Of a stretch of DNA of 36,451 bases, positions 13,237-36,451 are shown one piece after another (the stretch's first letter is position 1; each line of letters begins with the position of its first letter). This stretch comes from Planctomycetota bacterium (GTDB lineage Bacteria; Planctomycetota; GCA-002687715; DRQF01), in NCBI GenBank assembly GCA_036479435.1, contig JAZGFI010000185.1, forward strand, positions 1 through 36,451, given 5' to 3'. The translations under genes and the position numbers were made by a program. Below the pieces are notes generated by a model. That model saw only the letters and a program-made list of their open reading frames with translations. It did not search any database and was not told the DNA's origin.

Positions 13237-13243
13237 GAAGCCC

Positions 13244-14839: not shown

Positions 14840-14898
14840 TTGACGCACTCAGACAAATTGTCTTGGATGGCCGAATAGGGATCAGACAATTCGTCTGA
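14840..14898 (+). promoter_or_regulatory. Promoter with twin palindromic operators for the BlaI-like repressor
   Basis: TTGACG (-35-like) at 14840, palindrome AGACAA-A-TTGTCT at 14851-14863 and TCAGAC-AATTC-GTCTGA at 14882-14898. The shared core is AGAC-N5-GTCT. Confidence 0.7.
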
Positions 14899-14924
14899 CC
14901 GAGGCCCATCCGGGGAGCAATATC

Positions 14925-15314
14925 GTGGTTCGTCGCGGAAAAGACGTCACCAAGGCTGAACTCGCGGTTCTGCAGGTCTTGTGGAAAGGGGGCGAACCTT
15001 CCATTCGCAGCCTCGCCGATGTGCTTTATCCGGGCGGTGCCGCCTCGGATTACGCCACGGTTCAAAAACTTCTGGCCCGACTCGAAAAAAAAGGCTTCGT
15101 GACTCGCCGCCGCGAAGGCGGGCGAAACCTATACGCCGCGGCCTTGGATCGTGACGACCTCATCGCCCGGCGGCTTCAAGAAACCGCAGAGTCTTTGTGC
15201 GAGGGGTCATTGACTCCCTTGCTCACCAACCTTGTCCGTGCCAACCGTCTCTCATCTGAAGAGCGATTACGGCTGCGCCAGCTCATGGATGAGCTGGAAG
15301 AGCGGGAGGATTAG
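14925..15314 (+). CDS. BlaI/MecI/CopY-family transcriptional repressor
   Basis: Motifs TKAELAVLQVLW, YATVQKLLARLEKKGFV and GSLTPLLTNLV. GGGGAG RBS, adjacent to the M56 gene. Confidence 0.92.
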   Translation: MVRRGKDVTKAELAVLQVLWKGGEPSIRSLADVLYPGGAASDYATVQKLLARLEKKGFVTRRREGGRNLYAAALDRDDLIARRLQETAESLCEGSLTPLLTNLVRANRLSSEERLRLRQLMDELEERED

Positions 15315-15317
15315 CCG

Positions 15318-19256: not shown

Positions 19257-19428
19257 GCAGGGACTCCAATTGCGAAGGCAGTCTTGAATTGATCGGTCCG
19301 AGATCCTAACAGAGGACGTCCTAGGTACACCGAGTCGCCGAAAGGTGGCCTTCAGTGCTTCAAGATCGCGTCGAGCTGTGTCATCATGCGCCGGTCGATT
19401 CCACGTTACGAGTAGATGGCATTTTTTG

Positions 19429-21127: not shown

Positions 21128-21874
21128 ATGTCCGACGGCGAAGCCAAGCATTCCACACTGTATCACCTGAGGCAAAGCGTCGAAGAAAGAGCCTATCTCT
21201 TTTTGGTCACGACTTTCGCGACCCTGCTGGTACTGACGAATGTCATTGGCGCGAAGCTCTTTGTTGACCCCTTCTTCGGCCAGACATTGACCACCGGCAT
21301 CATCACCTATCCTTTGACCTTTCTCATCACCGACGTCGTCTCGGAAATCTACGGGAAACACCGTGCCGACCGCATGGTCATCATTGGTTTTGTGATGAGC
21401 CTTCTCATGCTGGCGGTCGTCCAAATATCGATTTCCGTCCCCGCGTCGCCTTTTTGGACCTCGCAGTACGTTCCCGAGTTCGACAACGCAACCTTGATGC
21501 AGAAGGGCTGGCTCGCGAGTTTTGGCGTCGGCAAATGGTTGGTGTGTGGCTCCATGTGTGCCTATCTCGCCGCTCAATTGTGTGACAACTACCTTTTTCA
21601 TTTTTGGCGACGGCTCACCAAAGGGCGGCATTTGTGGTTGCGAAACAACCTTTCGACCCCCGTGTCGCAGCTTGTGGACACCTTCATTGTGGGTTGTTTT
21701 TTGTTTTATGGGGCCTTTGGCTGGGGGTTTTGGGCCGGAGTTGAGGTGATGCTGGTCATCTACCTCTTCAAACTGGCGATTGCATTGCTCGATACTCCGC
21801 TTTGCTACCTCGGCGTTTGGGCGCTCCGGCGCCACCTGAATTTGGCAGGAGATCTTCAGGGTCCTCCTGACTGA
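21128..21874 (+). CDS. yhhQ: Queuosine precursor transporter (YhhQ/Vut_1)
   Basis: Motifs YPLTFLITDVVSEIYG, AYLAAQLCD, HLWLRNNLST, SQLVDT and KLAIALLDTP; multi-TM. Confidence 0.9.
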   Translation: MSDGEAKHSTLYHLRQSVEERAYLFLVTTFATLLVLTNVIGAKLFVDPFFGQTLTTGIITYPLTFLITDVVSEIYGKHRADRMVIIGFVMSLLMLAVVQISISVPASPFWTSQYVPEFDNATLMQKGWLASFGVGKWLVCGSMCAYLAAQLCDNYLFHFWRRLTKGRHLWLRNNLSTPVSQLVDTFIVGCFLFYGAFGWGFWAGVEVMLVIYLFKLAIALLDTPLCYLGVWALRRHLNLAGDLQGPPD

Positions 21875-21895
21875 CGGGTGATCTCGCGCTATAAT
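21867..21895 (+). promoter_or_regulatory. Sigma70-type promoter for the FHA gene
   Basis: CTGACT-N17-TATAAT. Confidence 0.55.
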
Positions 21896-21982
21896 CTCAG
21901 CACGCTCAGGAGGCGCGTTCGCCGGGTTGCTTCGAATTTAGGGGGCCTAGATGAACGTGGCGAGAAAAGGAAAACAGAGGCC

Positions 21983-23728
21983 ATGGCCAGTCTGGTTTTG
22001 AGTATTCAGGAACCCGGTCGCGACATTCGCAAGGTCGACGTACGGGTTGGCTTGCGAATTGGTCGGCACCCGGACAACGACTGCGTTTTGCACGATGGCA
22101 AAACCTCGGCCTGGCACGCCGAAGTCGTCGACGACGGTTCGGGCGGCTTCGTTATTCGTGATCTCGGTTCGTCGAACGGCACCAAGATTCTCGGTGGCCC
22201 TGAGCTTGGAGGACAACAAGTTTATCCGCTCGTCGTTGGCACTTCGATCGTGATCGGCCGCTGTAACATCGATGTCGCCGTCGCCGCACCCATCGCCGCC
22301 ACGACGATCATGCCCGCCATGAATTTGGACGCCGAGCCCAGTGCGAAGGCCTCTCCCTCGTCGGAATCCAAGACCACGGGACGGCCCATTCCGAAGACTT
22401 CTGACGAATCGGCGACGGATTCTCAGGCCGCGGTTGACCCCGACGGTGAAAGCCCGGTGGCGCCCGGGGACCAAGACAAAACGGATAGCCAGGCGATCGT
22501 TGGCCCAGATCCCAACGACGTTACCCGACTGGCGACTCCCGCGATGGCGGACCCGCTTGCCGCGCAGACTCAGGCGAGCGCGCCCGCGATGCCAGATCCC
22601 AAGGCCGAGGACAAAACGCCGGAGGAAGAACCGCCAGCCGCGAACAAGACGCGGGTGATGGCCGCCATCGACATTCTGGCCGAGGCGAACGACGCCGCAC
22701 GGGCAGGGCTTGATGGCGATGATGACGCCCCGCCTGCCGATAGCGCGACCCCCTCCGAGGAGGAGGATGCCGCGACCAAAAAGCGCAACGCTGCACGCGC
22801 GGCCGCCATCAAAAAGGCGGCGGCCAAGAAAAAAGCCGCGTCCGAATCTGGTGCCGATAAGGCACCGGCAGCCAAGAAAAAGCCAGCGGCCGAATCCGGT
22901 GCCGACGGGGCCGCGGGCGACGCCGCGGCCAAGAAGGCGGCAGCTAAAAAAGCCGCTGTGAAAAAGGCGGCCGCCAAGAAAGCCGCAGCGAAGAAGGTCG
23001 CGGCGGCTGAAGAATCTGAAGAAGAGAAGGCGCCGCCGAAGCTCTACAACGCAACGGTTGCCATTTCGGCAGCCAAGCTCATGGGACGGCCAGAAGACAT
23101 CGCCGCAATACGCCCGCGAATTATCCTCGACAACTACGGCAAGACGGAAGTTCTTGAAGTGCTGTCGGGAGACTTCACGATCGGTCGCAAGACGGCCGAT
23201 CGCTCCGACACTTATGGGGTGATCGACAGTCCTTCGGTTTCGACCCGTCATGCGCGCATTCGTTTCATGGAAGGGCGTTTCTTCATCGAGGACTGCGGCA
23301 GCAAAAACGGTACTTTGCTCGACGGCAAGCCTATGGCCCTGATGAATTTCAAAGAGCTACAGCCTGATACGCCGCTCGTCTTTGGCAACGTGAAGGGGCT
23401 TTATGTCTCGGACCTCATGGCCGACGGTAGCCCTGTCAACCCGAACCGTTACGCCGCCGCCGCGGAGGCGCTTGAACGGCGAGGATTCTTGACTAAATCC
23501 GAACGCGAACAAGCAGCCAAGCGAGGATCGGCGGAGAACCGTCACATCGGAGAAGTCCTGATCCTCGACCGCAAGATCGGCATCGAGCAATGGGCGCAAG
23601 CGGTGAGTGGCGGTCAAATCGCGCGCGACGTAAAGTCGGCAAGTCGGGCTGCAAAATCGAGGCTCCTTATCATCGGTGGCATCATCATCATCCTGGGCTG
23701 CGTCTTGGCCTGGTTTTTGATGAAGTAA
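21983..23728 (+). CDS. Double-FHA protein with disordered linker, MshEN-like segment and C-terminal TM
   Basis: FHA1 is IGRHPDND..SAWHA..DLGSSNGT and FHA2 is IGRK..STRHA..DCGSKNGT. The linker is acidic/Pro and AAKK-rich, and the C-terminus is hydrophobic. Start ATG 21983 with GAGG. Confidence 0.88.
   Translation: MASLVLSIQEPGRDIRKVDVRVGLRIGRHPDNDCVLHDGKTSAWHAEVVDDGSGGFVIRDLGSSNGTKILGGPELGGQQVYPLVVGTSIVIGRCNIDVAVAAPIAATTIMPAMNLDAEPSAKASPSSESKTTGRPIPKTSDESATDSQAAVDPDGESPVAPGDQDKTDSQAIVGPDPNDVTRLATPAMADPLAAQTQASAPAMPDPKAEDKTPEEEPPAANKTRVMAAIDILAEANDAARAGLDGDDDAPPADSATPSEEEDAATKKRNAARAAAIKKAAAKKKAASESGADKAPAAKKKPAAESGADGAAGDAAAKKAAAKKAAVKKAAAKKAAAKKVAAAEESEEEKAPPKLYNATVAISAAKLMGRPEDIAAIRPRIILDNYGKTEVLEVLSGDFTIGRKTADRSDTYGVIDSPSVSTRHARIRFMEGRFFIEDCGSKNGTLLDGKPMALMNFKELQPDTPLVFGNVKGLYVSDLMADGSPVNPNRYAAAAEALERRGFLTKSEREQAAKRGSAENRHIGEVLILDRKIGIEQWAQAVSGGQIARDVKSASRAAKSRLLIIGGIIIILGCVLAWFLMK
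22777..23010 (+). repeat. Low-complexity (A)AKKA coding repeats
   Basis: KKAAAKKAAVKKAAAKKAAAKK plus a duplicated AAKKK-x-A-x-ESGAD unit. Confidence 0.8.
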
Positions 23729-23747
23729 TCCGGAGTTCCAAGTCCAG

Positions 23748-23787
23748 AAAAAGGCCCTTCGTGACCACGGTCACGAAGGGCCTTTTT
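23748..23787. terminator. Bidirectional intrinsic terminator
   Basis: Perfect 19-bp inverted repeat AAAAAGGCCCTTCGTGACC-ac-GGTCACGAAGGGCCTTTTT between convergent genes. Confidence 0.92.
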
Positions 23788-23807
23788 AGCTTGGCCGATG
23801 GCTTGGA

Positions 23808-25715
23808 TTAGTTGCCGTCGCCGCCCGGCCCGGGAAGCTGTGGAAACTTGAAGTAGGGGATCGTAACGCCACCGAAACTGAAGTTGTCGACGCGAATGTT
23901 CGAAGGCGGTTCGAAGCCGCGAAAGCCGCCGTTGGTCACGAAGTCATCCTGCTCAACACCGTCTCCAGAAATCCCCAAACCCCCTACGAGTTGGCCGTTT
24001 TTGTAGAGAGGTGTTGCGCCGGGAAAAAAGATGATGCCGCTTTGCATCCCCGGGCTTGCCAGCGCGTTGCCCATGCTCATGAACGTGCTCGGAACGGCGT
24101 TTTGAGCCGCCAAATCGAACAATGGACCCGGCGCAAAACTCGAGCTGTCGATGCCCGGCGGGTAAAAAGGCTGCGTCAAAAACGCCAAGCTTCGGGTGGT
24201 AATCGCGACCCCGTTCTCTCCGGGGCTTCCCGCAATGCCGGTCGGGATTCCCGCACCATTTAAGAGTGCTACATCAGCGGGCTGAATGTTCGGGATCTGA
24301 CCGGGAGCGCTGCTGTAGTAGGTGACGCAGCGCGCCTTCGCGAGTGAAACGTCGTAGGAGAAAATTGGCGCGTCTTCCATCCGGTGAGCGGCGAGAATAA
24401 GGCCACGCAAGTTTGAAACGGCGATGACCATTTTCGTCGCGCTTCCGATTGGCAAGCGGATTGCCGCCCGCGTGCCGTCGCTGAAGTCGATCGATTGATC
24501 AACGATTTGTTGGACTTCGGCCTGGGTGAGGCCGTTGACGTTGAGGAAGGGATCGCCAGCCAAAAGGTTGCGATCTGGATCTTCCCGCGCCGCGATGATC
24601 GCTCCAAAAGGTTGCGTCATCCCTGCCATGGGAGCAATGACAGTACGGGCGGTGATGCCGTCGTCACTGAACATTCCAGGACTCAAGTTCGCGGGCCGCG
24701 TGATCTGTTCGACATAGGGCAAGAGCACGCCAACCAGAAAAATGCGGCCCACGGGTGGGACGATTGAGAGCGGGAACAAAAAGTCCAAGTCCGTCATCGG
24801 ATCGCCGGCAAGGTCAGCGGCCGCGACGCCGAAATTGCCCGCCTCAGAGTTGGGGCCGCGCAGCGCCTCGATCGCAGTGAACTCCATTGCGGGCACATCG
24901 GGGTTGCCCATGGCGTCGGTGATGTAGACCCCGATACCTCCGACGACGCGTCCAGCAAAATCGAAGGGGCCTCCGGTAAGATCGCCGAGTTTATAGGCCG
25001 AAACGCCACCCGGTAGATACGAAAGACCTGGACCGGAGCGCGTGGGGTCGGCGACGCCATTGATGTCGATGCGGGTCGCCGGGGGAATGCGCTGCGAGGC
25101 GACAGAAAATTGCGTTGGCGGCACCGTTTGCGCTCCGACGTCGTCGAGGTCAGTGCCGGCATAGGGCGCGCCGCGATTTGACGAAAATATCTGCCACAAA
25201 GGACCTTGCGCCGTTCCGGCGATGCCGGAAGTTTCGCGCTGTGATGCCAATGTCGCATCCAAGGCGAACGCGGTGCTCGGGATCGGGTTGCGCGTCGGCG
25301 CGCCGAAGGTGGCTGGAAAATGGAAGGTGCTGATGAACTCAAGCGTGCGCGTGGTAATCGGCCCTTGGCTCGAACTCATGAAGGCCCCGGTGCGCGCCAT
25401 CGAAACCGCGATGTTTAGATGGTCTTCGGTCGCCACGCTCATGTCGGTGCGCCGCGTCCAAAGGGCGAGCACACGACCGACTCGGTCGACGATGGCGACG
25501 CTCATGTTTTGCCGGTCGGAGGCTTCCGCAGCACGTCGGAGAATAATGTCGACCTCTTGCATGGTCATGGGCACGACCGGAGCAAAACTAGGCAATGAGA
25601 TGTTGTCTCCGCTGCCGACGCCGCCACCACAGGTTGTCACCACCGGCAACAAAGCTGCGACGAAAGCCAATACTAAGACCCGATAGCCCGCCGTTGATCG
25701 CGCCATCTTCGTCAT
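23808..25715 (-). CDS. Lipoprotein with two GlcG/HbpS-like (haem-binding family) domains
   Basis: Signal peptide with lipobox-like VTTC-GGG. Domain 1: VAIVDRVGRVL..AVSMARTG..PGGV..VVGGIGV. Domain 2: IAVSNLRG..RMEDA..SLAKAR..PGATPLYKNGQLVGGLGISG..QDD. Confidence 0.82.
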   Translation of the reverse strand: MTKMARSTAGYRVLVLAFVAALLPVVTTCGGGVGSGDNISLPSFAPVVPMTMQEVDIILRRAAEASDRQNMSVAIVDRVGRVLALWTRRTDMSVATEDHLNIAVSMARTGAFMSSSQGPITTRTLEFISTFHFPATFGAPTRNPIPSTAFALDATLASQRETSGIAGTAQGPLWQIFSSNRGAPYAGTDLDDVGAQTVPPTQFSVASQRIPPATRIDINGVADPTRSGPGLSYLPGGVSAYKLGDLTGGPFDFAGRVVGGIGVYITDAMGNPDVPAMEFTAIEALRGPNSEAGNFGVAAADLAGDPMTDLDFLFPLSIVPPVGRIFLVGVLLPYVEQITRPANLSPGMFSDDGITARTVIAPMAGMTQPFGAIIAAREDPDRNLLAGDPFLNVNGLTQAEVQQIVDQSIDFSDGTRAAIRLPIGSATKMVIAVSNLRGLILAAHRMEDAPIFSYDVSLAKARCVTYYSSAPGQIPNIQPADVALLNGAGIPTGIAGSPGENGVAITTRSLAFLTQPFYPPGIDSSSFAPGPLFDLAAQNAVPSTFMSMGNALASPGMQSGIIFFPGATPLYKNGQLVGGLGISGDGVEQDDFVTNGGFRGFEPPSNIRVDNFSFGGVTIPYFKFPQLPGPGGDGN

Positions 25716-25985
25716 GAGTCGTTCCCTTTTTCAAACTCGCCACTAAAAAACAGCGTGGCTAATTCCTTCATCGCGCCCCAACATTCAGAGCGTGAGGCCC
25801 GTAATCTGGGCCCCTATCTACCCTCTGAAGATAAAGGAGGGTTGCGATTGGCGGAAGAGGGTTCATCAAAATTTGAGAGGAGGGCTTGACCGAAGTGCCG
25901 GATTGTGGGCAAATCGCCACAGGCCAACCGGGCGATCCCGTCAGGTGTTGTGCTAATTGACAATTAGGGTCCGAGGGAGAAAGCA

Positions 25986-27968
25986 ATGAGAACTCGACCC
26001 CATGCTTGGTCGGGTTTCTTCTGTTTGTTCTGCGCTGTTACCGCGTTCATCGCGGTAAACCCTTCGCTTGCGAGCGGAGCGGTAGCAGGTCAACAGAGGA
26101 CACCGGTAAACAACCGCGTTGATCGAGAGAGTGGCGTTTCGCCTTCCGTTCGGGCTGCCGCTAAGCTCAAAGAGGCTTGTCAATATCTCATAAGATCCAC
26201 TGGCAAAAGCTCGAGTAATGAATCTCGAGTTGCGCGTCAAAACGGCGTTTCAGAGCGTTTTCCGCGTCCTCAGGTCGCTTTCAACGCGCGCCCTCTTCGT
26301 CGATTGTTTCAAGACGACGAAGTCGCCAAGCAACAAGAAATGCAGGAGCGGCGGGAGGAACTCCGCGAGAATCTCCAGGAAGAGCTGAAGCAGCCGGTGC
26401 ATTTCGAACCCATGCCTTCCCGCTGGTATCGCGACCCCTGGAGCCTCTTGCCCGGTCCCCCCTACGTCATCAATGAGCCGGGTGATAATCTCCTCGATCC
26501 CTACCGGCAGAACGTACTGAAGGGTGATTTTCCCATCATGGGCGAGGACCTTTTTCTGCGTTTGACGCTTACCGAGCGCGCCATTGTGGAAGGCCGCTCT
26601 ATTCCCTTGCAAGCGCCCTTGTCCAGTCCTTCACCGGGCGGCTTCGGTTTCTTTGGCAAAAGTGATCAATTTTTCTTCACATCAAAGACGGCTTTGACTG
26701 TGGATCTCTTCAAGGGGCAAGAGGCTTTCAAACCCGTGGATTGGCGAGTCCGAGTCACCGGTGTCGTCGACTACACCTTGCTCGCCATTAGCGAGTACGG
26801 CGGCGTCAACATCAATATCGGCGACCCTCGCACACGCGAAACCGGCGACTTGTCACTGCAAGAGGCTCTGGTCGAGATTCACCTCTTCGACCTCAACGAT
26901 CGCTTCGACTTCATCTCGAGTGAAGTTGGGATTTTCCCCTTCCGCAGCGATTTTCGCGGATTCATTTTTGATGACGTCAACCTTGGCGTGCGCTTGTTCG
27001 GCAACGCCGACGACAACAAGTGGCAGTACAACGCCGTGTTTTTCCACATGCTGGAGAACGACACGAACTCGGATCTGTTGACTTTCGACGAGCGCGACCA
27101 ACAGGTTTTGATTCTCAACGTCTACCGACAGGACTTCTTGTGGCTCGGCTACACCCTGAATCTTTCCTTTCACTACAATCACGACGAACCGTCGACTCAC
27201 TTCAACGTGAATGACTTCCTCGTGCGGCCGCAACCCGTTGGGCTCGCCAAGGAAAAAGAGATTCACGCCTACTATTTCGGTTTCGCCGGCGACGGGAAAT
27301 TCGGCCGCGTCAACATCACTCACGCCTTCTATCAGGTGTACGGATCAGAGACGAACAACGCTTTTGCGGCACGAGATACCAATATCGATGCGCAGTTTGC
27401 GGCCATTGAGCTGTCCTATGACTTGGACTGGTGGCGCATTCGGGTCTACGGGATGTACGCCTCGGGCGACAAAGACCCCTTTGACAAAGAGGCGGAAGGT
27501 TTCGACGCGATCCGCGACCTCGCCAACTTCGCGGGCGGTGAAGTCAGCTACTTCAACCGTCAACAAATTCAGTTGATCGGCGTGGGCCTCACGACGCGCT
27601 TTAGTTTCTTGCCCGACCTCACCACGTCCAGGCTCGAAGGGCAATCGAACTTCGTGAACCCAGGGTTGTGGCTTTTTGGTGCGGCGATCAATGCCGACAT
27701 CACGCCAACCTTGCGCGGGCAAATCGGGTTTAACCACTTGCGGTTCGATGAGTCTGCGGTGCTTGAGGTTTATCTCGAAGTCGAAGACATCAGCAACGAA
27801 ATCGGCAACGAGCTTTACTTCAGCGCGCAATGGCGTCCATTGTTGACCAACAACATCATCGCCAACTTCGGCGCCTCTGTATTTTTCCCCGGCGACGGGT
27901 TCGAAAAGATCTATCAAACTGATGAGACGCAGTACTCTGTGTTCTTCGATCTCATCGTGACTTACTAG
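25986..27968 (+). CDS. Putative outer-membrane beta-barrel protein
   Basis: Signal peptide, many amphipathic aromatic/Gly/Asn/Asp-rich strands and a C-terminal aromatic residue (VFFDLIVTY). GAGGGAG RBS. Confidence 0.75.
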   Translation: MRTRPHAWSGFFCLFCAVTAFIAVNPSLASGAVAGQQRTPVNNRVDRESGVSPSVRAAAKLKEACQYLIRSTGKSSSNESRVARQNGVSERFPRPQVAFNARPLRRLFQDDEVAKQQEMQERREELRENLQEELKQPVHFEPMPSRWYRDPWSLLPGPPYVINEPGDNLLDPYRQNVLKGDFPIMGEDLFLRLTLTERAIVEGRSIPLQAPLSSPSPGGFGFFGKSDQFFFTSKTALTVDLFKGQEAFKPVDWRVRVTGVVDYTLLAISEYGGVNINIGDPRTRETGDLSLQEALVEIHLFDLNDRFDFISSEVGIFPFRSDFRGFIFDDVNLGVRLFGNADDNKWQYNAVFFHMLENDTNSDLLTFDERDQQVLILNVYRQDFLWLGYTLNLSFHYNHDEPSTHFNVNDFLVRPQPVGLAKEKEIHAYYFGFAGDGKFGRVNITHAFYQVYGSETNNAFAARDTNIDAQFAAIELSYDLDWWRIRVYGMYASGDKDPFDKEAEGFDAIRDLANFAGGEVSYFNRQQIQLIGVGLTTRFSFLPDLTTSRLEGQSNFVNPGLWLFGAAINADITPTLRGQIGFNHLRFDESAVLEVYLEVEDISNEIGNELYFSAQWRPLLTNNIIANFGASVFFPGDGFEKIYQTDETQYSVFFDLIVTY

Positions 27969-27976
27969 GCCCGGCA

Positions 27977-30900
27977 ATGAGAACAGATGTGACCACCTCT
28001 ATCCGAAGCCTGTTTCAATACATGGTTCCCAGCCTTGCAGGCTTGGCGCTCATCGTGTTCATTTTCTCTTGCGGCCACGCCCGTATTGGTGCGCCGCCCG
28101 AGACCGCTGATTCCTTCACAGGATCTGACGTCTTCGACGACGGCATGCGGCGCGTGTCAGCTGGTGACCTCACCGCAGACTATGAAGCGCGCAACTCGGG
28201 CTGTATCGCCTGCCATGAGGGCAGCGATGACCCGCACATTCAGCGCGACGATAGCGGCGAAATCATCGGCGGTAGTCGTCAGATGGGCTGCGTTGATTGT
28301 CACGGTGGTAACGGTGCCGCGACCGACAAAGAAACCGCTCACCCGAAGCCGCGCTTTCCGAAACGCTGGCCGACGGCTGGCAATCCCGAGCGCACCTACG
28401 GCTTGCTGAACACCGAGGAGTGGGATTGGATTCGCTTTGTGAATCCCGGCGACCTTCGCGTCGCGAGTACAACCTGTGGTGCCTGTCACGCCGAGTACGT
28501 CTTGAACGTGTCCAAAGGAGTGATGACGACGGCGTCTCACTTCTTCGGCGTCGCGGCCTACGCCAACGGCATCGTCTCAATCAAACGCAGTGTATTTGGC
28601 GAATCTTACGCCGCCGACGGAACGACCCGCAAAGTCAATCAGCTGGTGCGCGACGCCGACACGGACGAGTGGCGCGCCCCGACGCAAGAAGAGATCGAAC
28701 GCCACGGTTGGGCGCCGGTCTTGCTTCCTTTGCCACACTGGGAAATCACGCAGGTTGGCAACATTTACCGCGTGTTCGAACAGGGCAGCCGTCTGGGCGG
28801 TCCTGGTCTTGCCTTCAATGGCCTACCGGTTCCCCTGGTCGGAATTCCCGACAAGCTGGAAGACGCCGGTCGCCCCAACAACAAGTTCTCCGACCGCGGA
28901 CTCGGAACCCTCAACCGCATTGACTTGCCGATCTTGAACGTTCACAAGTCGCGCCTGAATGATCCGCACCTGTCGTTTTTGGGTACGAACGACAATCCTG
29001 GAGACTACCGTTCGTCCGGCTGCACGGCCTGTCACGTCGTCTACGCGAATGACCGCAGCCCGGTTCACTCTGGCCCCTATGCTCGTCACGGTAACGATGG
29101 TCAGACCCGCGGTGACAACCCAGATCCCACGATCGACAAGCGCGAAAAGGGGCACCCGCTGCGCCACGAGTTCACTTCGGCTATCCCCTCGAGTCAGTGC
29201 ATGGTTTGCCACATGCACCAGCCGAACTCCTTTGTGAACTCCTACTACGGTTTCCAGATGTGGACCTACGAAACCGACGGCGACGACATGTGGCCGAAGG
29301 AACAGCAGTACCCCACTCACAAAGAGCTATTTGAGCGTTTCGATCGCAACCCCGAAGAAGCCGCCGCGCGCGGCAAATGGGGCGACCCGGATTTCCTGCG
29401 TGACGTTGCCTTTCGCATGAACCCGAAAATGAAGCACACGCAGTTTGCCGACTACCACGGCCACGGTTGGATGTTCCGCGCTGTGTTCAAGATGGATCGC
29501 AAAGGCAATCTGTTGGACAAAGATGGCAACGTCATCCCCTACGACGACCCCGACAAGTTTAAAGGCGTCATTCCGCTCAAGGGGACTCAAGACGAGTTCT
29601 TTCGCGAAGCCGTCGGCAATGCTCGTCGCGCAGTCCACCTGAAGGACATCCACGCTGAAAAAGGAATGCACTGCGTCGATTGCCATGTCAGCAATGGTGT
29701 TCATGGCGACGGTAATACCCACGCGGAATACCAGGCTGCAGTTCAGGTTCGTTGCCAAGATTGCCACGGTACCGTCACCGAGTACGCCGAGCTAACGACT
29801 TCAGGCCCGGTGGCAGAAGCGGCGATCGCCTTCGGGAAAGATCCTCAGAGCTTGCTTAGCATCGAGACGCCTTTCGGCGATCCCATGTTCGAAGTCGAAA
29901 CTGAGAACGGCGTGCCGGTCTACTACCAGAACTCGATGGTCGAAAAGGGCAAGCGCTGGCCAGTTCCACAGGTGCGCGATTCCGTGGATCCGACGAGTCC
30001 CAAGTACAACAAGGAAGCGACTTACGCCAAGACGATTCGCAAGGACAACTCAACTTGGGGCGGAGACCCCGACGAGATTGACGCGATGACTCTAGCGCAT
30101 GGTGGTTTGGAGAAAGGCAGTACCGGTGGCATGGAGTGCTACACCTGTCACACTTCATGGGTGACGGCTTGCTTTGGCTGCCATTTGCCGCAACGGGCGA
30201 ACATGAAGACGCCGATGCACCACTACGAAGAAAAGAATCTACGTAACTACGCCACCTACAATCCGCAGGTGGCGCGCGATGATGCCTTTCTCCTCGGCGT
30301 GTCCGGCGACGTGAAGCACAATCGCATTACGCCGGTGCGGTCATCCTCTGCGGTGCTGATATCGTCTCAGGATGCCCTGCGACGCAAGATCTACGGTCAG
30401 CTGCCGACGATGGCTTCCAACGGCATGTCGAGTCAGATTTTCAATACCCACTTTCCGCACACGGTCAGGACGACGGAGACGCGGGCTTGCGATGACTGTC
30501 ACCTGTCAGACAAGGACGACAACAACGCCTGGCTGGCGCAGGTTTTTCTCCTCGGCACGAACTATGTGAACTTTGTCGGCCACAACGCCTTTGTGGGCAC
30601 CGGCGCGGACGGCTTCCACGCCATTCGCGTGAGCGAGTGGCTTGAGCCTCAAGCCGTGATCGGCTCCGAGTTGCATCGCATGGCATACCCCGACGACTAC
30701 AAAAAGCACTTGGATCGCGGACGCCAACTCGACCACGACAACCACCACGGACGTTCGCCGGTCTTAGAACTTCAGCTGCGCGGAGAGTATCTCTACACCG
30801 CCGCGGGCCCCGGAGGCTTTCGCGTTTACGACGTTGCCAATGTCAACAACAAGGACTTTTCGCAGAAGATCATCACGGCTCCGGTGTCGCCATTGGGGCA

Positions 30901-31927
30901 AGACACCCATGTGGCCCTGCCCTACGCGACTTCCTTCGTGTTGCCGATCAACAACCCGACCAACATGGATCGCCTATACCGTCCCGAAAACAAAGAGACG
31001 GCCTACGAGTACAAAGGCAAAAAACAGAACCTCCACGAAACTTATCGCTACTGCTACGTGACCGATCGCCAAGAAGGGCTCGTTGTCATTGACGTCAATC
31101 CGCTGACGGACGGCGATCCGATGAACAACTTCTTGGAGAAGCTGCTGAGTTTCAATCCGGACGGCATCTTGAACGGTGCGGAGTGCATCGCATTCGCCGG
31201 GCAAACGCTCTACATCGGGTGTGATACGGGTCTCGTCGCGGTCGACATTAGTGATCCGCGCGCGCCGCGGGTGATCTCGAAGGTCACCACAATTCGTAAA
31301 CCGGAAGCCGTGCAGGTTCAGTTCCGCTATGCCTTTGTCGCCGATGCCGATGGGCTGAAAGTCGTCGACATCACGGCGCCGCAGCAGATGAAGCTTCTTA
31401 GCGCTGCCACTCTCAAGATTCCGCAGGCGCGCGATATTTACGTTGCCCGCACCTGGGGTTACGTCAGTTCGGGCACTAAGGGCCTGGTGATCGTGAATCT
31501 CGAGAATCCGACGAAGCCAACGGTGGACCAGGTCTGGAATGCCAACGGACAGATCAACGACCTGTGGCAAGTGAAAGTCGGCATGACCAACGACAGTGTC
31601 TACGCTTACCTCGCCGACGGACACAATGGTCTGCGCGTCGCCTCTTTGGTGACGCCGAAGGACGGTGGCCGCAGCGCCTACGGGTTCGCGCCCCGTCCCA
31701 AGCCCCGGTTGGTATCGCAGTTCAAGACCAAGGGTCGTGCTTTTGCGATCTCCAAGGGTCTTGACCGGGACCGCGCGGTCGATGAGTCGGGCAACCAGAT
31801 GACGGCCTTTGGCCGTATTGGGGGTCGGCCGATGAACCTCAAGGAAATGCGCCGTCTCTACATGAAGAACGGAAAGATTTGGAAGGTGAGCAACAAACCA
31901 CGGACGCGGGCGCTTCACGATCGCTAA
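27977..31927 (+). CDS. Decahaem cytochrome c lipoprotein with C-terminal LVIVD-repeat beta-propeller
   Basis: 10 CxxCH (CIACH, CVDCH, CGACH, CTACH, CMVCH, CVDCH, CQDCH, CYTCH, CFGCH, CDDCH). Lipobox-like IFSC and LVIVD repeats (GLVVIDV, GLVAVDI, GLKVVDI, GLVIVNL). Confidence 0.9.
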   Translation: MRTDVTTSIRSLFQYMVPSLAGLALIVFIFSCGHARIGAPPETADSFTGSDVFDDGMRRVSAGDLTADYEARNSGCIACHEGSDDPHIQRDDSGEIIGGSRQMGCVDCHGGNGAATDKETAHPKPRFPKRWPTAGNPERTYGLLNTEEWDWIRFVNPGDLRVASTTCGACHAEYVLNVSKGVMTTASHFFGVAAYANGIVSIKRSVFGESYAADGTTRKVNQLVRDADTDEWRAPTQEEIERHGWAPVLLPLPHWEITQVGNIYRVFEQGSRLGGPGLAFNGLPVPLVGIPDKLEDAGRPNNKFSDRGLGTLNRIDLPILNVHKSRLNDPHLSFLGTNDNPGDYRSSGCTACHVVYANDRSPVHSGPYARHGNDGQTRGDNPDPTIDKREKGHPLRHEFTSAIPSSQCMVCHMHQPNSFVNSYYGFQMWTYETDGDDMWPKEQQYPTHKELFERFDRNPEEAAARGKWGDPDFLRDVAFRMNPKMKHTQFADYHGHGWMFRAVFKMDRKGNLLDKDGNVIPYDDPDKFKGVIPLKGTQDEFFREAVGNARRAVHLKDIHAEKGMHCVDCHVSNGVHGDGNTHAEYQAAVQVRCQDCHGTVTEYAELTTSGPVAEAAIAFGKDPQSLLSIETPFGDPMFEVETENGVPVYYQNSMVEKGKRWPVPQVRDSVDPTSPKYNKEATYAKTIRKDNSTWGGDPDEIDAMTLAHGGLEKGSTGGMECYTCHTSWVTACFGCHLPQRANMKTPMHHYEEKNLRNYATYNPQVARDDAFLLGVSGDVKHNRITPVRSSSAVLISSQDALRRKIYGQLPTMASNGMSSQIFNTHFPHTVRTTETRACDDCHLSDKDDNNAWLAQVFLLGTNYVNFVGHNAFVGTGADGFHAIRVSEWLEPQAVIGSELHRMAYPDDYKKHLDRGRQLDHDNHHGRSPVLELQLRGEYLYTAAGPGGFRVYDVANVNNKDFSQKIITAPVSPLGQDTHVALPYATSFVLPINNPTNMDRLYRPENKETAYEYKGKKQNLHETYRYCYVTDRQEGLVVIDVNPLTDGDPMNNFLEKLLSFNPDGILNGAECIAFAGQTLYIGCDTGLVAVDISDPRAPRVISKVTTIRKPEAVQVQFRYAFVADADGLKVVDITAPQQMKLLSAATLKIPQARDIYVARTWGYVSSGTKGLVIVNLENPTKPTVDQVWNANGQINDLWQVKVGMTNDSVYAYLADGHNGLRVASLVTPKDGGRSAYGFAPRPKPRLVSQFKTKGRAFAISKGLDRDRAVDESGNQMTAFGRIGGRPMNLKEMRRLYMKNGKIWKVSNKPRTRALHDR

Positions 31928-32051
31928 GGGTTAGCATCTAAGGAACCAATAGGGGCCGATGATTCATCGGTCCCGGCCTCGTTTACCGGCTGCACGCCCA
32001 CCGTGGTGGGCTGGGTTTAGAGTCAGAGTCGACCAGCACGGAGATGAGAGA

Positions 32052-32858
32052 GTGAGCGAGGAAAAAGGCGACAAGGCCAAGGCGCCGGACAGAAAAGTCG
32101 CCGACAAGACAATTGCGATGCCGATGCTTGGTCACGAGACTCTGACCTCGATCGCCACGGAAGGTGTCCAGAATCTTGCCAGCGCGGCATCTCTACGGGC
32201 GGCGAGTCCTCGCATCGTCATCTGCAACGAAGCGATCAAAGAGATCGTCCCTATCGACAAGATCGAGTTCATCTTCGGGCGCAATCCTGAAGCGGGCGCA
32301 CACCACATCATCGATCACCCCGCGATCTCCGGCGCTCACTGCAAGGTCTTCTTCAAAAACGATCGCTTCTACCTGCAAGATCTCGGCAGCAAGAACCACA
32401 CCTTCGCCGACGGTGAGATGTTGGGGGCCGAAACCGCCAAAGAACTTCGCAGCGAGAGCACGGTTCGAATCGGTGCCGTCGAGGGGCTCTTTGTCATTGA
32501 CTGTGATGAGACCGGCAAGAAGCTCGACCGAAAGCGTTATCGGTCGGCCTTGCAGCTACTCGTAGCCGAGGGCCGGGTTTCCGCCCTTCAGGGCGAGCAG
32601 GCCTTTCGCGACGCGGCGGAAGCTGGTTGTCACCCCGGCGAGCTGTTGCTTAAGAACGGCGTACTTCGAGTTGACGACTGGGTTCGCGCCTACCGTCGCG
32701 GCGAGATGTTCGATCTCATTCAAAAAGAGGCGACGTCTAAGACCAAAAAGTACGCGATGCTCGTCCTGATCCAATGGATCGTCATTGTGGTGCTGTTGGG
32801 GATCATTGTCTTTAAGCCGGACTTATTCTCGGGCCTCTTCGGCGGAGGCGAGGGATGA
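32052..32858 (+). CDS. FHA protein with MshEN-like segment and C-terminal TM; paralog of the C-terminal half of 21983-23728
   Basis: FHA motifs FGRNP..ISGAH..DLGSKNHT, colinear with the upstream FHA protein. GTG start inferred (ORF track gives 31959). Confidence 0.85.
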   Translation: MSEEKGDKAKAPDRKVADKTIAMPMLGHETLTSIATEGVQNLASAASLRAASPRIVICNEAIKEIVPIDKIEFIFGRNPEAGAHHIIDHPAISGAHCKVFFKNDRFYLQDLGSKNHTFADGEMLGAETAKELRSESTVRIGAVEGLFVIDCDETGKKLDRKRYRSALQLLVAEGRVSALQGEQAFRDAAEAGCHPGELLLKNGVLRVDDWVRAYRRGEMFDLIQKEATSKTKKYAMLVLIQWIVIVVLLGIIVFKPDLFSGLFGGGEG

Positions 32859-34957
32859 GTCGCTTCGCGTCCCTTGCGTTGAGCTTCGCATCCTTGGTCG
32901 GGCTCTTTTGGCTTTTGGGGCCGGATTCTTTGATTGGCGGTTACGGTGCGGCGAAGCTTGTCGCGCCCGTTGAAACCGTGACGAGGGCTGGGATCTTCCC
33001 TCACTCGAAACACGTATCGAGACAGTGGATTACGAAGGGCGAAACTAAGCGCGACTGCCAAATATGTCACGACTTCACGACGCCCAACCATGAGCCTGCA
33101 TCCGCGTGTGTGAGCTGCCACTACAATCAGCAGGGAAGCGGCGCCGCGACGCTTAGCGTGCAGGGGCGGGTCGCCAATTACCAGCGCACGATGCCGTCTT
33201 TTAAGCACGAAGATCATGTGCCGAAGGGCATGGACTGCGCCGAATGCCACGTCGATCCCAACTCGAAGTCTAAGTTCATGGTTGATGAGATTTGGATCCC
33301 GCGCGGCCTCGGCTGGTGCACCAAGTGCCACGATCCAAGCTCCAACCGTGCCTACAAGTTCAATCGCGCCGCCGACAAACCGGCAGTGCACCAAGGTTTT
33401 CAACGCAAGATTAATGGCTCGCCAGGAATGGTGGGTAAGCCGAGTGATGTTTTCCTCCACTCCGACCACCTCAGTTCTTCGGAGCTGCGCTCGGGAAGCC
33501 CCAAAGTTTGCGATAGCTGTCACCAAGGGATGGCGACCGCAGACCCGATGATCGGCGAAAAACTCTTTCGCGAAAGTGACTGCACCGCCTGCCACTTGGC
33601 AGGAGCCAACCAGCCGATGCGCATTGGCATCCAAGAAGTCGCAGGCGCAAAACCCATCTCTAAGGCCGACTACACCTTTCTGCACGCCGACCATCTCTCA
33701 GCAAAAGCGCTGAAGAAAGACGGTCGCCTGGGTCGGCAGGGTTGTTTTGTCTGCCACGACTACAAGGCCTCCGCCGTATCCGAGGGAGATCGTTACCCGG
33801 TCAAGCCGCGCTACCAGACTTTCGCGGGCTGTGTCGAATGTCATAAACAGGGAAGCGTCGGTGGCGGCATTGCTCGAGATATTCCGGATCACGGTGAAGT
33901 CGACAACTGCTTTGGTTGCCACTCGGTCGGCGGCGAAGACACGGACATGAAGACCAATCGACCGTTGGTTGAGATTGACCGCCGCCATCCGGGCGATTTC
34001 AGGTTTTTGTCTCACGCGCACCCGCATATCACCGGGGCGGATGGAAAGACTCGGTCCTGTACCGAGTGCCATGTGTCCGAGCGCCACGAGTTGCCGTCCA
34101 GGATTCGGCAAAAACCCTTCAAGCACAAACCGCACCTCAACTCCAACGCCAAGCTGCAGACCGCGGAATGTGCCGCCTGCCACACTGCGGCGAAGGAGCA
34201 CGGGCGGATGGAGATGGGAGTCGTCGAGGGCGGCCACATCAACTACGAAGCCAAAAGCTGCCTTGAGTGTCACCGCGAAGTCGGCAAGACCGAACTAAGT
34301 CCATTGAGCTTTAAGTCACGCAAAGAGACGGTGGTCCTCTTTTCGCATCACGACCACTTGTCCGAAGCGGCTTTGGCGCTCGACCCGGCGTTGAAGGAAA
34401 AACTCTGCCTCGCCTGCCACGAGTCGCAAGACTCTGCCGCGGTAGCCTCAACCGGTCATGACTACGGCTACGCGCAGGGGACTTTGGACTGCCTTGCTTG
34501 TCACGACCATCAGTCTAAGTACAAACAAACCGGAAACGTCGACCAGAACTACGTCGAGGGTTGCATGGCTTGCCACGAAGTCGGCGTGCCGGCGAAGGGC
34601 TCAGAGCTGCCCATCCGGCGCATTGAAGCGCGAGGCCTCGGCGGGACTCAGTTTCATCCCTTGCCGCAGGAAAAAGCCTGTGCTGCCTGCCACAAGTTGC
34701 AGCCGATGACCATGATCGGCGGTGATGAGGTGGCGGCCCTAACTCAAGTTCGCGGTACGCGAGTCGGCTATCCAAACAACGGTTTTCACCGTCTGGCCGA
34801 TGGCGGCGGCGCCAAGCTGCACGACCGATGCTTAGAATGCCATTGGCACCAGGCAAACAGCCCGGTCTACAAGATGCGGCACAAGTTGGGAAAATCCGAA
34901 ACCGTTATTCGTAAACAGTACGGCAGCACCTTGGGTCCGTTGCCGGCCGGACGTTAG
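32855..34957 (+). CDS. 17-haem cytochrome c (c3/c7-like repeats)
   Basis: 17 CxxCH counted, with recurring distal-ligand motifs FPHSKH, FKHEDH, FLHSDH, FLHADH, FKHKPH and FSHHDH. N-terminal signal/anchor; ATGA overlap with the FHA gene. Confidence 0.92.
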   Translation: MSRFASLALSFASLVGLFWLLGPDSLIGGYGAAKLVAPVETVTRAGIFPHSKHVSRQWITKGETKRDCQICHDFTTPNHEPASACVSCHYNQQGSGAATLSVQGRVANYQRTMPSFKHEDHVPKGMDCAECHVDPNSKSKFMVDEIWIPRGLGWCTKCHDPSSNRAYKFNRAADKPAVHQGFQRKINGSPGMVGKPSDVFLHSDHLSSSELRSGSPKVCDSCHQGMATADPMIGEKLFRESDCTACHLAGANQPMRIGIQEVAGAKPISKADYTFLHADHLSAKALKKDGRLGRQGCFVCHDYKASAVSEGDRYPVKPRYQTFAGCVECHKQGSVGGGIARDIPDHGEVDNCFGCHSVGGEDTDMKTNRPLVEIDRRHPGDFRFLSHAHPHITGADGKTRSCTECHVSERHELPSRIRQKPFKHKPHLNSNAKLQTAECAACHTAAKEHGRMEMGVVEGGHINYEAKSCLECHREVGKTELSPLSFKSRKETVVLFSHHDHLSEAALALDPALKEKLCLACHESQDSAAVASTGHDYGYAQGTLDCLACHDHQSKYKQTGNVDQNYVEGCMACHEVGVPAKGSELPIRRIEARGLGGTQFHPLPQEKACAACHKLQPMTMIGGDEVAALTQVRGTRVGYPNNGFHRLADGGGAKLHDRCLECHWHQANSPVYKMRHKLGKSETVIRKQYGSTLGPLPAGR

Positions 34958-34971
34958 GGGACGAATCGAAC

Positions 34972-35997
34972 GTGAATACCGCGCTCTTTAAGTCACCCCA
35001 CGCGATTTACGCGCTGCTGATCTGTATCGGCTTCGGCGTTTGGCCGCAGCTCATCGGCGCTCGCATCGGCCCTGTTACGGGCGGTGACGTCAACTACTTG
35101 CTGTGGTCGGGTTGGATCGCCTTTGCTCTTATGGTGGTCGCCTGTCTTTATGTTCTCCGCAAGTACATCCACAAACTCGGCTGGTCTCCCGAGCTGAGGA
35201 TGAAGATGCCCGTGGCCGTTCTTGAGCGCACCGACTCGCGGCTGAATGACGTTCGGCGTCGTATCGCTCAAGGATCCTTAACAGACCTGAAAGAGGTCAA
35301 GACTTTAACCGCGAACATTCTGCGGGATGAAGGCGTGCAGAAGGTCATCGTGTGTGACGTCGAAGAAGGTGACACCAGTCGTGGTGAGCCGAGCCTCAAA
35401 GTCATGGCGAGACCAACCGAGCCCTACGGCCGTATGGTGAGCTGGCTTCACGCTCATGCCTACTACGGCATTGCCTCCGGTGTTTTAGTCTGGTTGCACG
35501 GTGGCATGAAGTTCGACGAGCCGATGGGGATCGCGCTGAACGTCTTGACGCTCGTAGTCATCGTCACCGGCATCGTGGGCCTTTTTCTTTTCGCGATGGG
35601 GCCAAGTTGGATCGCGAAGGCCGAGCAGGATATTAGCTTCGAACAACAGTACGTCCTTACCCATAGCCTCGAAGAGAAGTTCAACGAGGCGATGACCAAG
35701 TTTGAGGACGAGCCCGAACTCGCCGCGCAAATCCGCAAGGCCCAAAAGGCGGGCGGCAACTTCGATGATGTTGCGAAACGCGAACTTGCCACCGCGGTTG
35801 CGGCGAAGCCCGACGCCAAGGTCTTGTTGCAAGACGTCATGGTCTTGCTCGGTCAGCGTCGCCGAATCGAAAAAGGTCTGGCGGGCCTTATGCGCATTCG
35901 CTTTCTTATGAACTTTTGGCGTGTGGTCCACGTGCCCTTGTCGATCGTGCTCATGGTCGTGGTATTTGTCCACATTGTTCAAGTCTGGTGGTATTGA
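34972..35997 (+). CDS. Integral membrane protein with two H-x13-H helices (putative di-haem b)
   Basis: About 5 TMs, including H-AYYGIASGVLVWL-H and H-VPLSIVLMVVVFV-H. Confidence 0.72.
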   Translation: MNTALFKSPHAIYALLICIGFGVWPQLIGARIGPVTGGDVNYLLWSGWIAFALMVVACLYVLRKYIHKLGWSPELRMKMPVAVLERTDSRLNDVRRRIAQGSLTDLKEVKTLTANILRDEGVQKVIVCDVEEGDTSRGEPSLKVMARPTEPYGRMVSWLHAHAYYGIASGVLVWLHGGMKFDEPMGIALNVLTLVVIVTGIVGLFLFAMGPSWIAKAEQDISFEQQYVLTHSLEEKFNEAMTKFEDEPELAAQIRKAQKAGGNFDDVAKRELATAVAAKPDAKVLLQDVMVLLGQRRRIEKGLAGLMRIRFLMNFWRVVHVPLSIVLMVVVFVHIVQVWWY

Positions 35998-36006
35998 GGT
36001 GAATTC

Positions 36007-36451
36007 ATGACCGACACCATCGACGTACCGACGCTGCTCCAAGAGCTTGTGCTTTTCGGCGACCTCAAAAAGGGCGACTTGAAAAAGCTCAATGATGAGA
36101 AGCATTGCCAGCTGTTTCGCTACGCAGCGGGTGAGAATATCGTCCGCCAAGGCGAACTCGATACCGAGTTTTATGTCATCCTCGACGGAATCGCGAGTGC
36201 CTATCGCATGGAGGACGACGGCCAAAGCCGCCGTTTGAGTTCCTTTGTCGCTGGCGATTGGTTCGGCGAGATGTCGGCCATTTCTCACCAAGCGCGATCC
36301 GCGACGGTGCAGGCCGACACCCCATGTACCGTCGTCATGCTCGACGTCACGATGTTTCAGATGCTCTTCGGCAACAAGAAGGGCAAGTTTCGCGAGATGA
36401 TCGACGCGCGCTACAAAGAAACCGCGCTCGCCCATCACCTTGATACCGCGC
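36007..36451 (+). CDS. Cyclic-nucleotide-binding-domain protein (partial, runs off the window end; absent from the ORF track)
   Basis: Translated by hand: MTDTIDVPTLLQELVLFGDL...GENIVRQGE..FYVILDG...GDWFGEMSAISHQARSATVQA. GAGGTG RBS. Confidence 0.9.
   Translation, partial: MTDTIDVPTLLQELVLFGDLKKGDLKKLNDEKHCQLFRYAAGENIVRQGELDTEFYVILDGIASAYRMEDDGQSRRLSSFVAGDWFGEMSAISHQARSATVQADTPCTVVMLDVTMFQMLFGNKKGKFREMIDARYKETALAHHLDTA

Follow-up and report, generated by a model that had tools for sequence, protein, structure and literature searches.

A widespread multihaem redox gene cluster with FHA and cyclic-nucleotide-binding modules in a Planctomycetota genome, and a tentative electron path from the cytoplasm to the outer membrane

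We examined a cluster of redox and signalling genes from a Planctomycetota bacterium (assembly GCA_036479435.1, contig JAZGFI010000185.1, here C185) that might encode a regulated path for electrons across the cell envelope. The window, i.e. the whole stretch of DNA that was analysed, is the entire contig of 36,451 bases; the genome comprises 5.47 Mb in 299 contigs, has 58% G+C and is 92% complete. The cluster begins with a gene for a tail-anchored protein with two FHA domains (21878-23728, + strand; Pfam FHA, 98.5 bits in two stretches; C-terminal transmembrane (TM) helix), followed on the opposite strand by a gene for a secreted HbpS/GlcG-like protein of 635 amino acids (23808-25715, - strand; Pfam HbpS-like, 49.3 bits, cut-off 25). 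Six genes on the + strand come next. They encode an outer-membrane beta-barrel of 660 amino acids (25986-27968), recognised from an AlphaFold2 (AF2) model and without a Pfam match at E <= 0.01; a ten-haem LVIVD cytochrome of 1316 amino acids (27977-31927; 10 CxxCH motifs, Pfam LVIVD 68.2 bits); a tail-anchored protein with one FHA domain (31959-32858; Pfam FHA 53.1 bits, TM helix 262-295); a 17-haem cytochrome c of 700 amino acids (32855-34957; 17 CxxCH motifs, several multihaem Pfam families); a five-helix H-x13-H membrane protein of 341 amino acids (34972-35997), which belongs to no Pfam family and was characterised by its motifs and an AF2 model; and the 5' part of a cyclic-nucleotide-binding (cNMP) and Fe-S protein (36007-36451; Pfam cNMP_binding 72.6 bits), which runs off the contig end. 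The Pfam matches for FHA, LVIVD, cNMP_binding and HbpS-like all exceed the curated cut-offs. An earlier note, made from the letters of this DNA, had listed the same eight open reading frames (ORFs) with 10 and 17 CxxCH motifs, and the ORF calls and motif count verified all of them. A scripted count found no CxxCH in the other six proteins of the cluster, and no CxxxCH, CxxxxCH or CxxCK motifs.

The + strand genes are closely spaced. Junction gaps of 8, -4, 14 and 9 bp agree with those reported earlier, the value of -4 being a 4-bp overlap between the stop of the FHA gene (31959-32858) and the start of the 17-haem cytochrome gene. The gap of about 124 bp that had been given after the LVIVD gene holds only with a later GTG start near 32052; counted from the ATG at 31959, it is 31 bp. 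Residues 1-55 of this FHA gene's ORF are without a match in the ortholog at locus L011 (13535-14644, - strand), and because of this the start codon of 31959-32858 is uncertain. A 270-bp spacer separates the divergent HbpS-like and barrel genes. A scan for promoters and terminators gave counts at chance level and none at gene junctions.

The truncated last gene continues on a second contig of this genome, C195: the final 127 bases of the window (36325-36451) match its reverse-complemented end (10828-10954) with exact identity, and the assembly break falls inside the tandem cNMP gene. The C195 frame that completes this gene contributes a second cNMP domain and 4Fe-4S dicluster domains, and so the Fe-S domain that the earlier note expected beyond position 36451 is present. 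The next gene on C195 (7764-9743, - strand) encodes a protein of 659 amino acids in which an N-terminal FHA domain is followed by a single TM helix (133-161) and 15 CxxCH motifs; after it lies an unrelated-looking DUF4129/DUF4350/MoxR/DUF58/SpoIIM/RDD set, which is found downstream in the relative G004 too. The join of the two contigs is supported by two relatives with long contigs (G004 and G013), in which a single gene of about 495 amino acids encodes two cNMP domains and the Fe-S domain and is followed by an FHA-fused multihaem cytochrome. In an alignment of 28 orthologs of the Fe-S protein, 16 invariant Cys residues make up four cluster motifs. Profile searches show that the Fe-S part resembles four-cluster electron-transfer subunits such as HycB and FdnH, and that the tandem cNMP part resembles the regulatory subunits of PKA and PKG. 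The first cNMP domain keeps the FGE...R-S-A-T phosphate-binding cassette (FGEMSAISHQARSAT). With the genes on C195 included, the cluster holds 42 c-haem motifs (10 + 17 + 15), of which 27 lie inside the window.

The membrane protein encoded at 34972-35997 carries two H-x13-H pairs, H162/H176 and H320/H334. Among 31 homologs W158, H162 and H176 are invariant, and conservation of W316, H320 and H334 is 90% or higher. Its AF2 model (mean predicted local distance difference test score (pLDDT) 87.5) has helices at residues 9-28, 40-68, 152-177, 184-217 and 280-340 and soluble inserts at 73-148 and 223-278. The motif W158-x3-H162-x13-H176 lies on helix 3, W316-x3-H320-x13-H334 on helix 5 and T199-G200-x-x-G203 on helix 4. 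Under the positive-inside rule both inserts of the model would be cytoplasmic, with helices 3 and 5 running parallel from inside to outside. We infer that the protein binds two b haems, with H162 and H320 near the cytoplasm and H176 and H334 near the periplasm. Weak Pfam matches were obtained for DUF4405 (18/31 members) and Ni_hydr_CYTB (7/31), and Atlas leads consisted of 'ferric reductase-like' clusters, one of which contains a fusion of such a domain with a multihaem cytochrome. An identical membrane protein (P0241) is recorded on four contigs in the protein collection, the longest of 3,989,566 bases; a far more complete public assembly of the same or a near-identical organism exists.

The 17-haem cytochrome starts with a TM or signal segment (residues 3-23) and, judged from its sequence, is predicted to be membrane-anchored and periplasmic. 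Pfam assigns Cytochrome_C7, Mtrc-MtrF_II-IV_dom and Cytochrom_c3_2 to it, and its first 256 residues align collinearly with residues 127-344 of the cytochrome on C195 that is fused to an FHA domain (E 1e-7). In Planctomycetota loci a 17-haem ortholog is encoded at this same place; the wires of these loci have 15 and 17 haems, and the equivalent wire in other phyla has 10. A sequence search of the PDB returned weak ActA-type matches. Membership of the Mtr, Hmc, ExtM/N/O and NrfH families was considered and rejected, the NCBIfam scores being far under the cut-offs: 50.6 bits against 192.2 for the DmsE-family model TIGR03508, 23.8 against 134.2 for NrfH (TIGR03153) and 40.7 against 400 for the HmcA equivalog NF045713. 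The statement in the earlier note that the components do not look like MtrA, MtrB or CymA is borne out by Pfam, NCBIfam and a scan of the barrel homologs, all of which place them outside those families.

The LVIVD cytochrome (27977-31927) combines ten c-haem sites with a C-terminal LVIVD region of beta-propeller type, and its signal sequence contains a lipobox-like IFSC. The lipobox-type Cys is found in most Planctomycetota homologs; it is absent from those of KSB1, Calditrichota and related ones, which have an ordinary N-terminus of signal-peptidase-I type. Nearly every scored candidate in the database search (7997 of 8000) matched at E <= 0.001, and the best 120 are 51-68% identical over nearly the full length; the closest relatives by protein carry the labels of Planctomycetota metagenome-assembled genomes. 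In the family alignment (A3) all ten haem motifs are invariant or nearly so, with a mean column identity of 58%. No match was found in a PDB sequence search, and the best E-value of a profile search was 0.12. Given this unusual conservation, we mark the LVIVD cytochrome, on its sequence, as the best candidate for a new enzyme activity in the cluster. The HbpS-like protein (23808-25715) has a signal sequence ending in Cys, which makes it a possible lipoprotein. It had been described as a double GlcG/HbpS-like protein; Pfam reports one stretch only, but the two halves do align weakly with each other (E 4e-4), so that the description stands in part. Its ortholog in Spectribacter has three HbpS-like stretches, and homologs occur in 51 of 80 loci compared below, mostly directly upstream of the barrel.

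The protein encoded at 25986-27968 is a beta-barrel, as the earlier note had supposed. It consists of a signal sequence, a disordered part (about 23-109), a helix (111-135) and the barrel proper (about 183-660). An AF2 model built from 67 sequences has 18 long strands, a mean pLDDT of 81.8 (above 90 over most of 183-660) and a predicted template modelling score (pTM) of 0.75. The top Foldseek match is AlgE (E 1.7e-16, TM-score by target 0.67, 12-14% identity), followed by 18-strand porins (MOMP, OccD/K, chitoporin). Pfam Alginate_exp (PF13372) was matched by 4 of the 67 homologs, with a best E-value of 1.5e-5; the window protein was unmatched, and a PDB sequence search with it gave no match. 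We also considered a barrel of the MtrB/PioB family and rejected it: none of the 67 homologs matches MtrB_PioB at E <= 1, and the barrel has 18 strands. MtrB has about 26 strands and sheathes a cytochrome. As modelled, the barrel is of the substrate-channel type rather than the MtrB sheath type.

The nature of these components suggests a regulated electron path that would lead from cytoplasmic Fe-S clusters through two b haems and periplasmic haem wires to an outer-membrane-associated decahaem-propeller protein. We favour this reading of the sequences, though only tentatively. On the cytoplasmic side, the tandem-cNMP protein would carry four predicted [4Fe-4S] clusters and could dock with the membrane protein at its two cytoplasmic inserts. 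For the five-helix inner-membrane protein two stacked b haems are predicted, and the membrane-anchored 17- and 15-haem cytochromes would then conduct across the periplasm. The decahaem-propeller protein would be the terminal redox partner, with a substrate that may arrive at or through the AlgE-like barrel. Electron flow would probably be directed outwards, as in ferric-reductase-type proteins. Finally, the free FHA proteins might read a phosphothreonine (pThr) mark and the first cNMP domain might bind a nucleotide, and jointly they could gate assembly or flux.

In order to see how widely these genes occur together, we compared genomic loci around the LVIVD cytochrome. A scan of species representatives (one genome per species) yielded at least 583 confirmed LVIVD cytochrome stretches in more than a dozen phyla. 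Locus counts refer to the best 80 of these stretches, many of them short, with groups counted from record titles. The 80 loci come from Planctomycetota (27), Bdellovibrionota-type bacteria (14), 'Deltaproteobacteria' (7), Acidobacteriota classes (6), Nitrospirota (4), Bacteroidota/Cytophagia (4) and Gammaproteobacteria/Pseudomonadota (4, including the cultured Spectribacter hydrogenoxidans and S. acetivorans); five are unlabelled, and Calditrichaceae, Ignavibacteriae, Chlorobiaceae, Binatia, Methylomirabilota, Margulisiibacteriota, Zixiibacteriota, Polyangiaceae and Ca. Coneutiohabitans contribute single loci. At the level of ORFs, 62 of the 80 loci have the barrel, 51 the HbpS-like protein, 41 further multihaem cytochromes, 39 the cNMP/Fe-S protein, 37 the membrane protein, 32 a tetrahaem cytochrome and 17 a Pyr_redox-FHA protein. 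Where at least 2 kb of sequence lies upstream of the LVIVD gene (66 loci), the barrel is present in 56, and in 53 of these it is the direct neighbour on the same strand. Of the 28 loci that extend 9 kb or more in each direction, 23 have the barrel, 22 the HbpS-like protein, 22 the cNMP/Fe-S protein and 17 the membrane protein, and 14 have all four.

The gene order differs between groups. The order of the window is common to four relatives (G004, G013, G001 and G021), and among the 80 loci it was seen in Planctomycetota only (L022, L025, L031, L036, L065, L069 and L070). Outside this phylum the commonest order is flavo-cNMP-Fe-S protein, membrane protein, FHA-decahaem cytochrome, HbpS-like protein, barrel, LVIVD decahaem cytochrome and tetrahaem cytochrome. 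Presence and absence were also compared in 41 related genomes, which are kin and not independent: all 12 with a near-full LVIVD cytochrome match the membrane-protein profile, 11 of them at E <= 1e-120, and 27 of the 29 without it have no match to that profile. Locus counts, gene order and genome-level presence and absence thus agree that the genes are co-conserved across phyla; the cluster is real, widespread and uncharacterised.

The FHA domains of the cluster fall into two kinds. The protein at 21878-23728 has two FHA domains, a Lys/Ala-rich linker and a TM helix at 591-616, and its gene is found at the corresponding place in G004 and G001. As had been proposed, it is paralogous to the operon's own FHA protein (residues 413-610 against 84-284, 27% identity, E 2e-25). 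Orthologs of the latter (31959-32858) in G004, G013 and G021 have two FHA domains, and the window's protein has one. The residues R, S, H and N form the pThr pocket of FHA domains. All three free FHA domains of the window keep them, and across the loci free-standing FHA domains have R in 48/56, S in 53/56, H in 56/56 and N in 48/56. In the cytochrome-fused domain on C195 the four positions are occupied by T, A, H and V, and among 30 cytochrome-fused domains R is kept in 17, S in 12 and N in 3. Since pThr-binding residues are lost, we propose that the FHA domain fused to the 15-haem cytochrome may be a docking domain instead.

Genes of signalling type recur with the cluster in distant phyla, in line with the link to signalling drawn in the earlier note. 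FHA domains occur in 45 of the 80 loci and FHA-multihaem fusions in 27 (10 haems outside Planctomycetota, 15 inside); Ser/Thr kinases are encoded in 11 loci and PP2C phosphatases in 6, and cNMP domains recur as well. The Spectribacter operon is followed by genes for a PP2C phosphatase, a two-FHA protein and a Ser/Thr kinase, and at its head the cytoplasmic subunit is a fusion of Pyr_redox, two cNMP domains and Fer4. We also observed an 800-amino-acid protein family that combines a Pyr_redox FAD/NAD(P) part with one or more FHA domains; it accounts for the 17 Pyr_redox-FHA loci counted above and stands directly after the LVIVD cytochrome or at the operon end (carriers include L029, at 14025-16430, and L027, L028, L030, L038, L044, L061, L041, L043, L051, L068 and L072).

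The fusion of signalling-type domains straight to redox subunits in many phyla could also mean that the system is a sensor, in which a small flux reports the redox state of the envelope or surroundings through cNMP, FHA domains and Ser/Thr phosphorylation, and bulk catalysis is not its purpose. HbpS-like proteins are known in Streptomyces as part of a haem-dependent redox-sensing system, and the alignment of the LVIVD cytochrome disclosed no catalytic signature and 13 invariant non-motif His residues for 10 haems. However, 42 c-haem sites and four Fe-S clusters would be a large investment for such a role, the full-length identity of 47-68% that the LVIVD protein retains across phyla is more typical of an enzyme, and this cluster encodes no DNA-binding or kinase output domain. 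We regard a sensor as quite improbable.

Parts of the cluster resemble systems that have been described before. The PCC4 cluster comprises a porin, cytochromes with 4, 5 and 10 haems, an H-x13-H membrane protein and an Fe-S gene of pfam13247 type (He, Barco, Emerson & Roden 2017, PMC5566968). In the parts of that paper available to us, the inner-membrane protein of PCC3 and PCC4 is described as having five TM helices with W-x3-H-x13-H on helices 3 and 5 and S/T-G-x-x-G on helix 4, two b haems in a ferric-reductase-like arrangement are proposed for it, PCC4 subgroup II is reported to include Planctomycetes, and an inward electron direction is proposed in Fe(II) oxidisers (PMC5566968). The window's membrane protein fits this definition, with Thr199 in place of Ser. 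Unlike PCC4 as described, the window's cluster has an LVIVD propeller, an HbpS-like protein and FHA proteins, and its haem numbers are 10, 17 and 15.

The ptdABCDEFG genes encode a pentahaem cytochrome, a porin, an FAD/NAD(P) oxidoreductase, a tetrahaem cytochrome, a cNMP/4Fe-4S protein, a ferric-reductase-like protein and a decahaem cytochrome (Elbon, Stewart & Glass, bioRxiv 10.1101/2023.11.21.568154). According to the portion of the preprint consulted, they are transcribed in a marine oxygen-deficient zone with 'function completely unknown' (bioRxiv 10.1101/2023.11.21.568154). By their descriptions, the cNMP-binding 4Fe-4S protein (PtdE), the ferric-reductase-like membrane protein (PtdF), the decahaem cytochrome (PtdG) and the presence of a porin correspond to parts of our cluster. 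The outer part differs, as far as the published descriptions can be compared: ptd has a pentahaem cytochrome with a beta-sandwich (PtdA) and the porin PtdB, and here we find the decahaem LVIVD protein, the AlgE-like barrel and the HbpS-like protein. The flavoprotein PtdC is without a counterpart found in the window's genome. In Ferrigenium straubiae, an FHA-nonahaem (NHC) protein, in which a single TM helix joins a cytosolic FHA domain to a periplasmic multihaem part, adjoins five-TM and [4Fe-4S] proteins (bioRxiv 10.64898/2026.01.22.701106). Its cluster was expressed in all conditions tested and an inward electron direction was proposed; in the sections we could consult, the five-TM protein is not recognised as redox-active (bioRxiv 10.64898/2026.01.22.701106). 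It has nine haems where the C195 protein has 15, and those sections describe no barrel, LVIVD cytochrome or HbpS-like protein.

Judged by sequence, then, the cluster is a Planctomycetota variant of the already named PCC4/ptd-type cluster. It is therefore not entirely undescribed. The inner module is in print as PCC4, ptd and NHC, in the portions seen without functional experiments, and our search of the literature found no follow-up functional study of ptd or PCC4. No description of the module formed by the LVIVD decahaem protein, the AlgE-like barrel and the HbpS-like protein was found in the literature searched, to which the supplements of the PCC4, ptd and NHC papers, which may list it, did not belong. 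A Tenderiales preprint, in the part seen, concerns an unrelated haem-less LVIVD protein.

More distant systems share single features. MtrCAB, MtoAB and PioAB likewise have an outer-membrane barrel encoded beside multihaem cytochromes, but the window has no member of the MtrA/DmsE or CymA/NapC families, and its barrel is of the 18-strand AlgE-like type. The Mtr systems draw on quinol, and they are not known to have an Fe-S/cNMP protein or FHA domains. In Hmc and Tmc and in the ferric-reductase-domain proteins NOX, STEAP and MsrQ, as in the system proposed here, a periplasmic haem partner is connected to the cytoplasm through a membrane b-type cytochrome; in Hmc and Tmc an Fe-S protein is the partner on the cytoplasmic side. 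NOX, STEAP and MsrQ also share the bis-His pattern, with residues about 13 apart on parallel helices 3 and 5; the window's protein has five helices, not six.

These comparisons bear on the direction of flow. If electrons moved inwards, they would be taken by the outer module from a donor outside the cell or in the periplasm, for instance Fe(II), Mn(II) or a reduced sulphur or nitrogen compound, and would run along the haem wires and the membrane protein to the quinone pool, or to the Fe-S clusters and NAD(P)+. The same direction has been proposed for PCC4 (PMC5566968) and for the NHC cluster (bioRxiv 10.64898/2026.01.22.701106), as far as those sources were seen. The carriers include the lithotroph-rich Nitrospirota, Methylomirabilota and Binatia, and the weak NrfH-like and ActA-like similarity at the N-terminus of the 17-haem cytochrome would fit quinone contact. 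However, many carriers are labelled as aerobic heterotrophs or predators (Bdellovibrionota, 14/80; the cultured Spectribacter), flavoproteins of NAD(P)H type are fused at the cytoplasmic end and no quinone site was identified. It also counts against inward flow that NOX, FRE, MsrQ and STEAP proteins, which have this His pattern on helices 3 and 5, carry electrons outwards. We consider inward flow unlikely. The outward path is favoured because the cytoplasmic end in other phyla includes an FAD/NAD(P)H oxidoreductase, either fused or as a separate gene, and many carriers are labelled as aerobic heterotrophs.

The published inner modules also raise the question of whether the cluster is one system. 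The outer genes (HbpS-like, barrel, LVIVD) and the inner genes (Fe-S/cNMP, membrane protein, FHA-multihaem) might belong to two independent neighbouring systems with no direct electron transfer between them. Inner modules with other outer parts (ptd and PCC4) or with none (NHC), as described in the portions of those papers seen, would agree with this, and so would the existence of barrel-less loci and the swapped order of the modules in the window type relative to other phyla. What speaks for a single system is that the four markers stand together in 14 of the 28 full-flank loci, across phyla and in several gene orders, that presence and absence agree at the genome level in the 41 relatives, and that the genes of the window are tightly spaced (8 to -4 bp). 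We give two independent systems a low probability.

Several observations nevertheless weigh against a single outward path as we have drawn it. For the membrane protein, Pfam Ferric_reduct (PF01794) was matched by 1 of the 31 members (E 0.22), hhalign against E. coli MsrQ gave a probability of 0.1, and neither a Foldseek search of the model against the PDB (E <= 0.001) nor a PDB sequence search returned a match. With VIA-align, generic helical bundles came top (Z 9.6), and STEAP4 and STEAP1 followed at Z 8.4 over 152-155 residues, which is within the chance range for helical bundles. On the regulatory side, Trp replaces the phosphate-binding Arg in the second cNMP domain, here and in 17 of the 28 orthologs, and the cluster in the window's genome contains no Ser/Thr kinase or PP2C gene. 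Neither the Pyr_redox part of the Spectribacter protein (E < 1e-8) nor the Pyr_redox-FHA protein of locus L029 (E < 1e-3) had a tblastn match in the window's genome, which is 92% complete; because the flavoprotein partner was undetected there, the electron direction is taken from other phyla. At the outer membrane, the 18-strand AlgE-like barrel gives no evidence of haems crossing the membrane, and the electron wire through it that the earlier note envisaged is unsupported. Some loci form a barrel-less subtype (L027-L030, L038 and L044), and in published clusters, as far as they were seen, the inner module occurs without the LVIVD protein, so the two modules are possibly not obligate partners.

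A more specific proposal goes beyond the regulated path itself. The LVIVD decahaem-propeller protein, the AlgE-like channel and the HbpS-like protein would form a new and widespread terminal oxidoreductase module (at least 583 species) for an unrecognised envelope substrate; it would be fed from the cytoplasm by a NOX-like outward pump made up of flavin or Fe-S clusters, two b haems and haem wires, the assembly of which is switched by threonine phosphorylation through the FHA domains and tuned by a cyclic nucleotide, and the longer wires of Planctomycetota (15 and 17 haems instead of 10) would be adapted to an enlarged periplasm. Taken whole, this proposal is somewhat unlikely. If the outward reading holds, a large share of environmental bacteria would own a dedicated electron route from the cytoplasm to the outer membrane. 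The abundant Planctomycetota, Bdellovibrionota, Nitrospirota and Acidobacteriota would be among them, as would no fewer than two marine Spectribacter strains that are in culture. Electron-transfer subunits with pThr-reader and cyclic-nucleotide domains would then represent post-translational gating of an electron chain. The cluster is present in cultured aerobes, which makes the question directly testable.

A few minor observations concern the available data and the surroundings of the cluster. The public sequencing runs that hold the window stretch are DNA runs, with no RNA run listed. At 13373-14197 (- strand), 8 kb upstream of the cluster, lies a gene for a 274-amino-acid protein of ferredoxin-NADP-reductase type (FAD_binding_6 and NAD_binding_1), which adjoins a two-component system at 10634-13269. 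Closer to the cluster, a Vut_1 (YhhQ-type) transporter gene (21128-21874, + strand) and a gene for a family-less protein of 455 amino acids (19345-20712, + strand) accompany the upstream FHA gene in G004 and G001 as well, probably as plain synteny among close relatives.

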